Part shown: in pieces, positions 21,400 to 22,890 of the stretch
Position numbering within the stretch: the first letter of the stretch is position 1
Layout of the letters: each line of letters opens with the position of its first letter
Assembly (NCBI GenBank): GCA_018653605.1
Contig: JABHYY010000004.1
Coordinates: forward strand, 1 to 62,837
Direction of reading: 5' to 3'
Length of the DNA: 62,837 bases
From: an archaeon
GTDB taxonomy: Archaea > Nanobdellota > Nanobdellia > SCGC-AAA011-G17 > GW2011-AR17
Program-made: the position numbers and the translations under genes
Notes under the pieces: generated by a model
What the model was told of the DNA's origin: nothing
The model's input: only the letters and a program-made list of their open reading frames with translations
Databases searched by the model: none

Positions 21400-22890
21400 T
21401 TAACTCAAAGCAAACCTTAACAGAGCACCAACCTTGCCCAAATCTCTTAACTGCTTCCCTTCAGAAGTATCAGTAGAAATAACTTGCAATTCACAACCAG
21501 TTTCTTCACACTTTTCCTCAAGCATATCCATGGTTTCCTCATCCAAATCCTCAGAAGCCAACAAAATTTCAACAGCACCAAACTCTAAAGCTTTCTTAAC
21601 CTCATCGAGACCATAAGAAATTTTCTCAGGTTCAACAGACAACATTTTCAAAAACCTTTCCATCAATTTTCTCTCTTGTGCAATAGCTTCATCAGCAAGA
21701 ACATCTTGGCTTTTTTCAACTAGCTCCTTCAAACCAAACTCTCCAGTATAACTTAAATCTTGAATAGAAATAATTTTCCTTTTCAGTTGATCATTCAAAT
21801 AACCTCTATCAATAAACATTTCTTTATACTGTCCTGGCCCACCAATCAAAATTCCTTTCAACTCTTTAATAGTCAAAAAAGCTTTTTGTGCACTATCATT
21901 CACCCTGTTAAAAAATTCTTTTGTAGCTTCTTCTCTAATCCTTGCAAACCTCTGTGCAGAATTATGTACAACAACACCTTCAGCAACAAAATTTTTACTT
22001 TCAACTTCAATATCAATAAGTGTAACTGGTTTATCTTCAGATTTCACATCATTAATTGTGACAGGAGCACCCTTTGCATTCAAAAGATCCATACCAACCT
22101 CCAACTCAGAAGCAGCCTTTTCAGTTCCATCAACTAAAAAGAAAACATGGTCAGCAGAACATTTTATTTCTTCTTCAGCATAACTAATTCTATACAATTT
22201 ATCTTTAACACTTTCCCATGTTTTTACAACTTTAGAAACAATAAATTCTCTCTTTTCAAAATCAAAACTTTTAACTTCATCTCCTTCTTCAATATCACAT
22301 AACATAACAAACTGTCCATCAGCCATTTCAATAGAGGTTTCAGCATCTAAACACTGTCCTCCTGCTTTAGTTTTACCTGGAACAGCAGAACGCATAGAAT
22401 TCAACTCTTCAATTTGAGTACCTTTCAAAAAACCAACAGATGCATCTCTTCTATCCATAACAATTAAACCATAAGTTTCTGAAACATCCATCATCCCTTT
22501 GATAATTTCCAAAACAAAACTTTGGTCACAACGATAAATCCTTGTATTCAAAGGAGTAGGTGGTTCAAAACTATACACTTGAATATCAACTTTCCCCTCT
22601 TTATCAGAAACATTCCCTGAAAAAACAGCCAAACCATTTTTTGGAGTTGCCTTAAACAATTTAAGGTGCCTAATCATTCTTTCTAAAGAATCAATAACAT
22701 GCTTTTGTGTAGTTTTATCTTTAATATTTGTAGCAGTACCTTGCTCTTGCATCAAATGATTAATAATCTTAACAATATCATATCCAGCTGGAATATAAAC
22801 ACTAACTAACTCAGTGTGCCTTCCTCTAACTTTCTCTAACTTCCTTACAAATTTTTTCAGCTTTTGTTTTTCTTTTGTGGATATAGCCAT
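21400..22890 (-). CDS. prf1: Peptide chain release factor aRF1, intein-containing
   Basis: TELVSVYIP, NIK, YRCD..F, GGQ|SAQRF interrupted by intein, GALLRF end. Confidence 0.95.
   Translation of the reverse strand: MAISTKEKQKLKKFVRKLEKVRGRHTELVSVYIPAGYDIVKIINHLMQEQGTATNIKDKTTQKHVIDSLERMIRHLKLFKATPKNGLAVFSGNVSDKEGKVDIQVYSFEPPTPLNTRIYRCDQSFVLEIIKGMMDVSETYGLIVMDRRDASVGFLKGTQIEELNSMRSAVPGKTKAGGQCLDAETSIEMADGQFVMLCDIEEGDEVKSFDFEKREFIVSKVVKTWESVKDKLYRISYAEEEIKCSADHVFFLVDGTEKAASELEVGMDLLNAKGAPVTINDVKSEDKPVTLIDIEVESKNFVAEGVVVHNSAQRFARIREEATKEFFNRVNDSAQKAFLTIKELKGILIGGPGQYKEMFIDRGYLNDQLKRKIISIQDLSYTGEFGLKELVEKSQDVLADEAIAQERKLMERFLKMLSVEPEKISYGLDEVKKALEFGAVEILLASEDLDEETMDMLEEKCEETGCELQVISTDTSEGKQLRDLGKVGALLRFALS
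21961..22353 (-). other. 131-aa mini-intein (Hint only, no homing endonuclease) in aRF1
   Basis: Cys1 CLDAET, block B SADH, block F DIEV..NF.A.G, HN|S junction. Confidence 0.95.

Follow-up and report, generated by a model that had tools for sequence, protein, structure and literature searches.

The described systems closest to the element reported here are BIL domains, compact inteins of solved structure, and the inteins deposited for related archaea. The element itself is a mini-intein that interrupts the gene for archaeal release factor 1 (aRF1), directly after the catalytic Gly-Gly-Gln (GGQ) motif, in a 62,837-nucleotide stretch of archaeal DNA (contig JABHYY010000004.1 of assembly GCA_018653605.1), the whole of which is called the window below. 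BIL domains are found in non-essential, variable proteins, and their cleavage or ligation is mostly of another kind. gp41-1 (6qaz, 6riz), a naturally split intein of a phage-like helicase, and the mini-intein of Spl DnaX (7cfv) resemble the window's intein in their compact HINT fold, lack of an endonuclease, Cys1, and terminal Asn, with Foldseek TM-scores over the query (TMq) of 0.83 to 0.85. The inteins at the GGQ/S site of public DPANN aRF1 proteins (a slash marks a splice junction; e.g., P0016, from 'archaeon GW2011_AR17') have the same host, insertion point, and splice residues, and the window's copy is no different in kind. One such precursor, P0003, is 88% identical to the window's over its whole length; four others (P0101, P0114, P0116, and P0120) have the splicing domain in common with it and carry an extra LAGLIDADG endonuclease insert of ~290 to 380 amino acids (aa) after residue 96. 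Our reading, which we hold to be very probable, is that the window carries a class-1 mini-intein resident in the sole aRF1 of a marine DPANN (Woesearchaeota/Nanoarchaeota-type) archaeon and that this intein is ordinary, long resident, selfish, and constitutively spliced.

An earlier note on this DNA had left it undecided whether the insertion site was unreported, and the answer is a divided one. No paper naming an intein in aRF1 or eRF1 was located by full-text search, outside which lie subscription journals, InBase, and supplements, yet public databases hold hundreds of examples. In the passages of PMC5871332 examined, eRF1 and inteins appear as separate items, and those of PMC6514570 mention no intein. 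The NCBI names of such precursors are 'peptide subunit release factor 1 (eRF1)', in many cases 'hypothetical protein', and in some (such as P0009 and P0064) 'polymorphic toxin-type HINT domain-containing protein'; the latter two kinds of name mask an essential translation factor in automatic annotation.

The aRF1 precursor gene and its parts lie on the reverse strand of the window as follows.

21400..22890, strand -, open reading frame of the aRF1 precursor (N-extein, mini-intein, and C-extein), 496 aa plus stop
22354..22890, strand -, N-extein, residues 1-179 (N domain and start of M domain; MAISTKEKQK...VPGKTKAGGQ), model positions 1-174
22354..22362, strand -, catalytic Gly-Gly-Gln codons, Gln179 being residue -1 of the intein (translation)
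21961..22353, strand -, predicted class-1 mini-intein of 131 aa with a HINT fold and without an endonuclease domain (family models, AF2, Foldseek)
22351..22353, strand -, block A Cys1, N-terminal splice nucleophile (translation; the same in all 128 distinct mini relatives)
22147..22158, strand -, block B Ser66-Ala-Asp-His69, an S-x-x-H where T-x-x-H is usual (Ser66 and His69 invariant, 128 of 128)
22012..22014, strand -, block F Asp114 (translation; invariant, 128 of 128)
21958..21966, strand -, block G His130-Asn131 followed by Ser+1, the first residue of the C-extein (His130 and Asn131 invariant, 128 of 128)
21403..21960, strand -, C-extein, residues 311-496 (rest of M domain and C domain; SAQRFARIRE...LRFALS), model positions 174-318 and 358-402
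21400-21402, strand -, stop codon of the aRF1 precursor (translation)

The precursor scores 391.7 bits against the equivalog model for aRF1_eRF1, TIGR03676 (cut-off 234.7), and the match is split at model position 174, directly after GGQ. The Pfam domains eRF1_1, eRF1_2, and eRF1_3 are each found above their cut-offs, and both the NIKS-type motif (TATNIKDKTT) and AGGQ are present. Between these parts, the 393 bases from 21961 to 22353 translate on the reverse strand in frame and free of stops into 131 residues (CLDAET...SADH...VVVHN), with junctions that read ...KTKAGGQ / intein / SAQRFARI.... Intein-free aRF1 proteins of the same family read KTKAGGQSAARFSRI (L079) and KFKAGGQSAQRFSRI (L082), that is, they are of the GGQSAARF or GGQSAQRF type, so excision of the 131 aa gives back a normal host sequence. 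The GC content of the intein (0.316) is close to that of the window (0.318).

The insert is recognized by three family models, Pfam Intein_splicing (PF14890; 43.9 bits, cut-off 35.8) and the NCBIfam models intein_Nterm (TIGR01445; 31.1 bits, cut-off 24.5) and intein_Cterm (TIGR01443; 17.2 bits, cut-off 15.6). In an alignment of the window's intein with 38 mini-inteins cut from the same aRF1 site in related genomes (39 rows), Cys1, Trp46, Ser66, His69, Asp114, Asn121, Phe122, His130, and Asn131 are invariant, and all of these except Trp46 and Asn121 are present in each of 128 distinct mini-inteins. Among these invariant positions are those expected of a class-1 intein in blocks A, B, F, and G. 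At +1, every one of the 113 homologues parsed has Ser (7 of 120 were not caught by the junction pattern). Ser in place of Thr in block B is a conservative variant, and we count the motif as T-x-x-H. An AlphaFold2 (AF2) model built from the 39-row alignment is all-beta with high confidence (mean pLDDT of 97.4, pTM of 0.89). Foldseek matches this model to solved inteins and BIL domains with a probability of 1.00 and TMq of 0.83 to 0.94: 0.94 for Tetrahymena BIL2 (6y75), 0.93 for the Clostridium thermocellum BIL domain (2lwy), 0.88 for Ssp DnaB, 0.87 for the Mtu RecA mini-intein, and 0.83 for gp41-1 (6qaz). A profile search of PDB sequences ranks BIL2 (6y75) first at 1.3e-17, ahead of gp41-1 (2.6e-15) and the Spl DnaX mini-intein (2.4e-12). 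On its sequence and modelled fold, then, the insert has every feature of a genuine class-1 mini-intein. The endonuclease that marks a homing intein between blocks B and F is missing, the model showing no extra domain within the 131 aa. Assignment as a BIL domain was considered and rejected: such a domain belongs in a variable region of a non-conserved host, and the host here is aRF1 at its GGQ loop.

The earlier note had placed a true mini-intein immediately after GGQ, and its coordinates, its residues, and the motif that it saw restored on excision all agree with the translation and the intein-free relatives; the family models, splice residues, and fold bear out the identification, and the length of 131 aa without an extra domain bears out the absence of an endonuclease. 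Its remark on size also fits: ~130 aa is close to the minimum length of contiguous inteins, the aRF1 family spanning 124 to 134 aa and the gp41-1 chain having 128 residues.

The host genome (0.96 Mb in 42 contigs, 93.1% complete) has one aRF1 locus only, with no second aRF1 above the TIGR03676 cut-off in the part assembled. A weak second match to the aRF1 model on contig 37 is pelota (239.5 bits, cut-off 177.65). Hence, the only class-I release factor of the cell is made as an intein-bearing precursor, and no intein-free second copy, which would have undone the proposal that termination depends on splicing, came to light. With a single gene, termination would have to depend on splicing. The closest proteins carry the NCBI names Woesearchaeota, Nanoarchaeota, and 'archaeon GW2011_AR17', and the DNA of the window recurs in marine and seawater metagenomes.

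Three further inteins are seen in the same genome, in RadA, the DNA polymerase II large subunit, and a P-loop ATPase; the three genes lie on contigs C10 (L047), C11 (L048), and C19 (L044) of G000. Those of RadA and of the P-loop ATPase are large and lie after GSGK and after GGGK, respectively, the latter being of the LAGLIDADG type. The intein of the polymerase subunit is a mini-intein with a putative start at RRD/CVHP and an apparent end at ...NIINLR before CDGDE; if this putative boundary is right, its terminal Asn would be missing.

How is the same GGQ/S site occupied in relatives? A protein search gave 3415 matches among 8000 scored candidates, and all of the best 120, which were examined, carry an insert: 116 are 423 to 530 aa long, and 4 are 784 to 866 aa long with Pfam LAGLIDADG_3. 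The earlier note had proposed a search for endonuclease-bearing alleles at this site, and these are such alleles; they read GGQ/C...HN/S with two LAGLIDADG-type motifs between. In the same order, 182 of 201 genomes have a match. Among the matches listed, 40 genomes, the window's included, have an unbroken match over residues 1 to 496 (mini), 23 have open frames of 784 to 882 aa, and there are many frames of ~365 aa whose match ends at residue 178 to 180 (GGQ). We parsed 79 aRF1 genes, 39 with a mini-intein, 23 with a big intein, and 17 empty, counts that are not frequencies because the empty ones are a chosen subset. The 23 big inteins are 421 to 510 aa long, and the 381 alignment columns that they add lie between blocks B and F, behind residue 96 of the window's intein. 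When the intein by itself served as the query, same-site matches also came from other orders of the class, in frames of 502 to 532 and 854 to 876 aa. One of the genomes concerned, G471, is flagged as unpublished, and no conclusion depends on it alone. Among diverse aRF1 representatives (150 taken), a Cys-initiated insert follows directly upon the tripeptide in 54 of the 129 parsed. The site thus has three states in relatives: empty, occupied by a mini-intein, or occupied by a LAGLIDADG-bearing intein.

To follow the history of these states, a host tree was built from the exteins only (79 rows) and an unrooted intein tree from the splicing domain (62 rows, 131 columns), with a value of 95 in the Shimodaira-Hasegawa-like approximate likelihood ratio test (SH-aLRT) as the support mark. 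The three allele states need 25 changes on the host-protein tree, and, counting only its branches with SH-aLRT of at least 95, the mini state must still have changed 8 times or more. Close pairs on this tree differ in state, namely, L033 (mini) and L080 (empty) at a distance of 0.126, L035 (mini) and L057 (big) at 0.144, L039 (mini) and L061 (big) at 0.147, and L051 (big) and L078 (empty) at 0.189. Such intermixing, with close pairs differing, is what a homing cycle of invasion, endonuclease decay, and loss leaves while it is still running. The window's aRF1 lies in an all-mini clade of 10 (SH-aLRT 99). On the intein tree, the 23 big inteins and one fresh mini-intein (L039, sister of the big L061) form a clade (SH-aLRT 95), and the window falls in a separate all-mini group of 28 that spans at least 5 GTDB families with support of 80 to 94. 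Within this group, small clusters agree with the host tree (L020/21/26, L022/24/25, L027/30/32, L011/12, L006/09, and L007/10/13), indicating that the lineage has been largely inherited together with aRF1. The window's intein therefore belongs to an endonuclease-less lineage of 130 to 131 aa that is largely co-inherited with its host.

The selection pattern is that of a constrained element. Compared with its 38 mini relatives, the window's intein shows a median identity of 46% and the extein one of 60%, and the intein value is the lower of the two in all 38. The ratio of nonsynonymous to synonymous substitution rates (dN/dS) is 0.05 to 0.37 for the intein and 0.02 to 0.20 for the extein, computable in 11 of 13 pairs with dS near saturation. 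Together, these values indicate that the intein evolves faster than its host yet is clearly constrained, which is to be expected if loss of splicing is lethal.

Translation of the gene would yield a 496-aa precursor with a 15-kDa HINT domain at the tip of the GGQ loop. Once folded, this domain would carry out standard four-step splicing, with an N-S acyl shift at Gln179-Cys1, transesterification onto Ser+1, cyclisation of Asn131, and finally an O-N shift, to give a 365-aa aRF1 with the native GGQSAQRF loop. Since the GGQ loop must reach the peptidyl-transferase centre, a 15-kDa domain at its tip would block it, and the precursor would be inactive; as its N and C domains are intact, it might, while unspliced, even be a competitor for the A site, which would add to the selection for fast splicing. 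Splicing competence would be kept under purifying selection because unspliced aRF1 is useless or harmful. The mini-intein probably has as its ancestor or its sister a LAGLIDADG homing intein for which GGQ/S remains the target in related archaea, and, having no endonuclease, the mini-intein would no longer be mobile and would be passed on with the host gene.

Several points weigh against an ordinary, constitutively spliced intein as the full account. We infer splicing itself, its constitutive nature, and the inactivity of the precursor. The Ser of block B, which is mostly Thr elsewhere, and the Gln at -1 may influence the splicing rate. Support for the all-mini group is moderate (80 to 94, below 95) on an unrooted tree of 131 columns, so the mini lineage may have lost an endonuclease once or may never have had one. 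The dN/dS values are rough, with dS near saturation, and, the genome being 93% complete, the unassembled part might conceivably hold another aRF1.

Why would such an element persist without an endonuclease? The earlier note saw in this retention a hint of redox or metal control, and the corresponding explanation is a conditional intein whose splicing is gated by redox, metal, or temperature and which tunes termination capacity post-translationally. Redox-gated archaeal inteins are known, the element resides in a single essential aRF1 and is maintained by purifying selection without an endonuclease, and the window's copy has the extra residues Cys19 and Cys65, the latter next to block B. The conservation that a switch would call for is not there: among the 128 distinct mini relatives, Cys1 is the sole invariant Cys, position 65 is Cys in 54 and otherwise Ala or Ser, Cys19 is found in <10%, and no His is invariant apart from the catalytic pair, so that neither a conserved second Cys or Cys+1 nor a metal site was found. 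A Cys1-Cys+1 disulfide is impossible with Ser at +1. Purifying selection is equally expected of a purely selfish intein in an essential protein, and close kin manage without the element, with empty alleles in the same family and the mini L033 and empty L080 so near each other on the host tree. Nor does retention need a special cause, because imprecise deletion in the GGQ loop would be lethal and only exact deletion or gene conversion could clear the catalytic loop. The hint of redox or metal control is thus not borne out, with no second Cys or His conserved and Ser at +1, and we regard a conditional intein as improbable; individual inteins could still behave conditionally, but conservation across the lineage says nothing for a switch.

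A HINT insertion that is dead to splicing or only cleaves (BIL-like, or a decayed intein) would make the gene a pseudogene or require the protein to work unspliced. BIL domains are indeed the top structural matches, and BIL2 is the top PDB sequence match. However, none of the splice residues varies, Ser+1 and the terminal Asn among them, dN/dS stays far under 1, and the insert occupies a conserved site in a conserved protein rather than a variable region. This aRF1 is also the only one, and a 15-kDa domain on its GGQ loop presumably could not enter the peptidyl-transferase centre; moreover, homologues that appear truly dead, in genus g7, have exactly these residues replaced, an illustration of decay within this family. 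We therefore consider a dead or cleaving insertion highly unlikely. Even less credit, close to none, is due to removal of the insert at the level of nucleic acid, by an intron or programmed deletion instead of protein splicing, for which no support was found. The insert is in frame and stop-free and encodes a confidently folded HINT domain with full splice motifs. In addition, contigs from four marine or seawater sequencing runs (none flagged as a possible source) span both intein junctions with 0 differences, and no contig of these runs joins across the intein as an intein-free variant would, although contigs would miss rare variants. An ordinary mini-intein that is constitutively spliced remains the reading that we prefer.

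A free-standing 131-aa open reading frame homologous to the mini-intein occurs near aRF1 in g7, a sister genus in the window's family, downstream of it by 46 nt in G137, 1.7 kb in G090, and ~5 kb in G121. The neighbouring aRF1 is intein-free in G137 and G090 and carries a big intein in G121; the aRF1 of this genus is thus intein-free or reinvaded by a big intein while the free-standing copy survives alongside. The genes, with proteins P0122-P0132, are located as follows.

L091:1966-2361, strand +, free-standing HINT gene
L092:3296-3691, strand +, free-standing HINT gene
G121:C50:10142-10525, strand -, free-standing HINT gene

Its 11 clusters have a length of 131 aa in ten cases and of 146 aa in the other. 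Cys1 is replaced by Ala, His69 by Gln, Asp114 by Ala, Thr, Leu, or Glu, and the terminal His-Asn by x-Glu, and from these replacements the protein is predicted to be catalytically dead. Its dN/dS is 0.21 to 0.31 (three pairs, dS saturated). The copies derive from this mini-intein lineage, as their clade (SH-aLRT 100) nests with the mini-inteins of family f1, the window's among them (support 85), and they may represent an intein exapted into a separate protein. A dead copy that is still constrained with all four splice positions replaced suggests that the fold is worth keeping beyond splicing. There is a slim chance that the HINT domain of the 130- to 131-aa lineage has gained a role linked to aRF1, for instance in setting when, or whether, active release factor becomes available.

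The tripeptide before the insertion site varies in relatives, both with and without an intein behind it, and the window's own aRF1 keeps GGQ. Five genes of family f22 (L041, L042, L043, L065, and L066) have GGW (codon TGG) and then an intein, and three intein-free genes of families f5 and f6 (L085, L086, and L088) have GGF (codon TTC). The non-GGQ gene is the only aRF1 match in five genomes (G034, G006, G005, G119, and G062) that are 92 to 100% complete. Representatives near a GGF query (P0133-P0282), a sample biased to its kin in which 129 of 150 were parsed and 21 were not, comprise 103 GGQ, 15 GGW, 5 GGM, 4 GGF, and 2 GGA (26 of 129 non-GGQ). Full-text search located no paper on GGW, GGF, GGM, or GGA variants of aRF1. 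TIGR00537, which models the archaeal HemK-type (Mtq2-like) methylase with a cut-off of 87 bits, scores 125 to 143 bits in five of five GGQ genomes, including the window's (G000:C25:14142-14630), and 31 to 97 bits in the five non-GGQ genomes, where the cut-off is reached in two. This hints that the Gln methylase has been lost or has diverged where the Gln is gone, as judged from ten genomes whose kin are not independent. A second (pelota-type) match to the aRF1 model at E of ≤0.001 was found in none of the five non-GGQ genomes, to which the pelota model was not applied; pelota may be absent or more diverged in them.

With this family, a class-I release factor, interrupted at its catalytic GGQ loop, joins the hosts of inteins, a striking case of the rule that inteins occupy sites where conservation is highest and deletion least tolerated. 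In these archaea of reduced genome, each translation termination would depend on prior protein splicing. The family also offers many natural inteins of 124 to 134 aa, predicted to splice in cis between a Gln at -1 and a Ser at +1, that could be tried in protein engineering, where similarly small ones already exist. Mechanistically, the aRF1 mini-intein is ordinary. Set against gp41-1 and Spl DnaX, it shows 24 to 30% identity in structural alignments and has Ser rather than Thr in block B, and it differs from gp41-1 in being contiguous, archaeal, and housed in a translation factor. BIL domains (2lwy; Tetrahymena BUBL BIL2, 6y75) are its closest folds (TMq of 0.93 to 0.94, root mean square deviation of 1.4 Å); unlike them, the window's element splits a catalytic loop that is conserved, is followed by a +1 nucleophile, and on excision restores the host motif. 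Other archaeal inteins in information-processing proteins, such as those of RadA, DNA polymerase II, and the P-loop ATPase of the same genome, likewise lie at the catalytic, most highly conserved sites (P-loop or active site) of essential proteins, and what sets the present case apart from them is its host, a class-I release factor.

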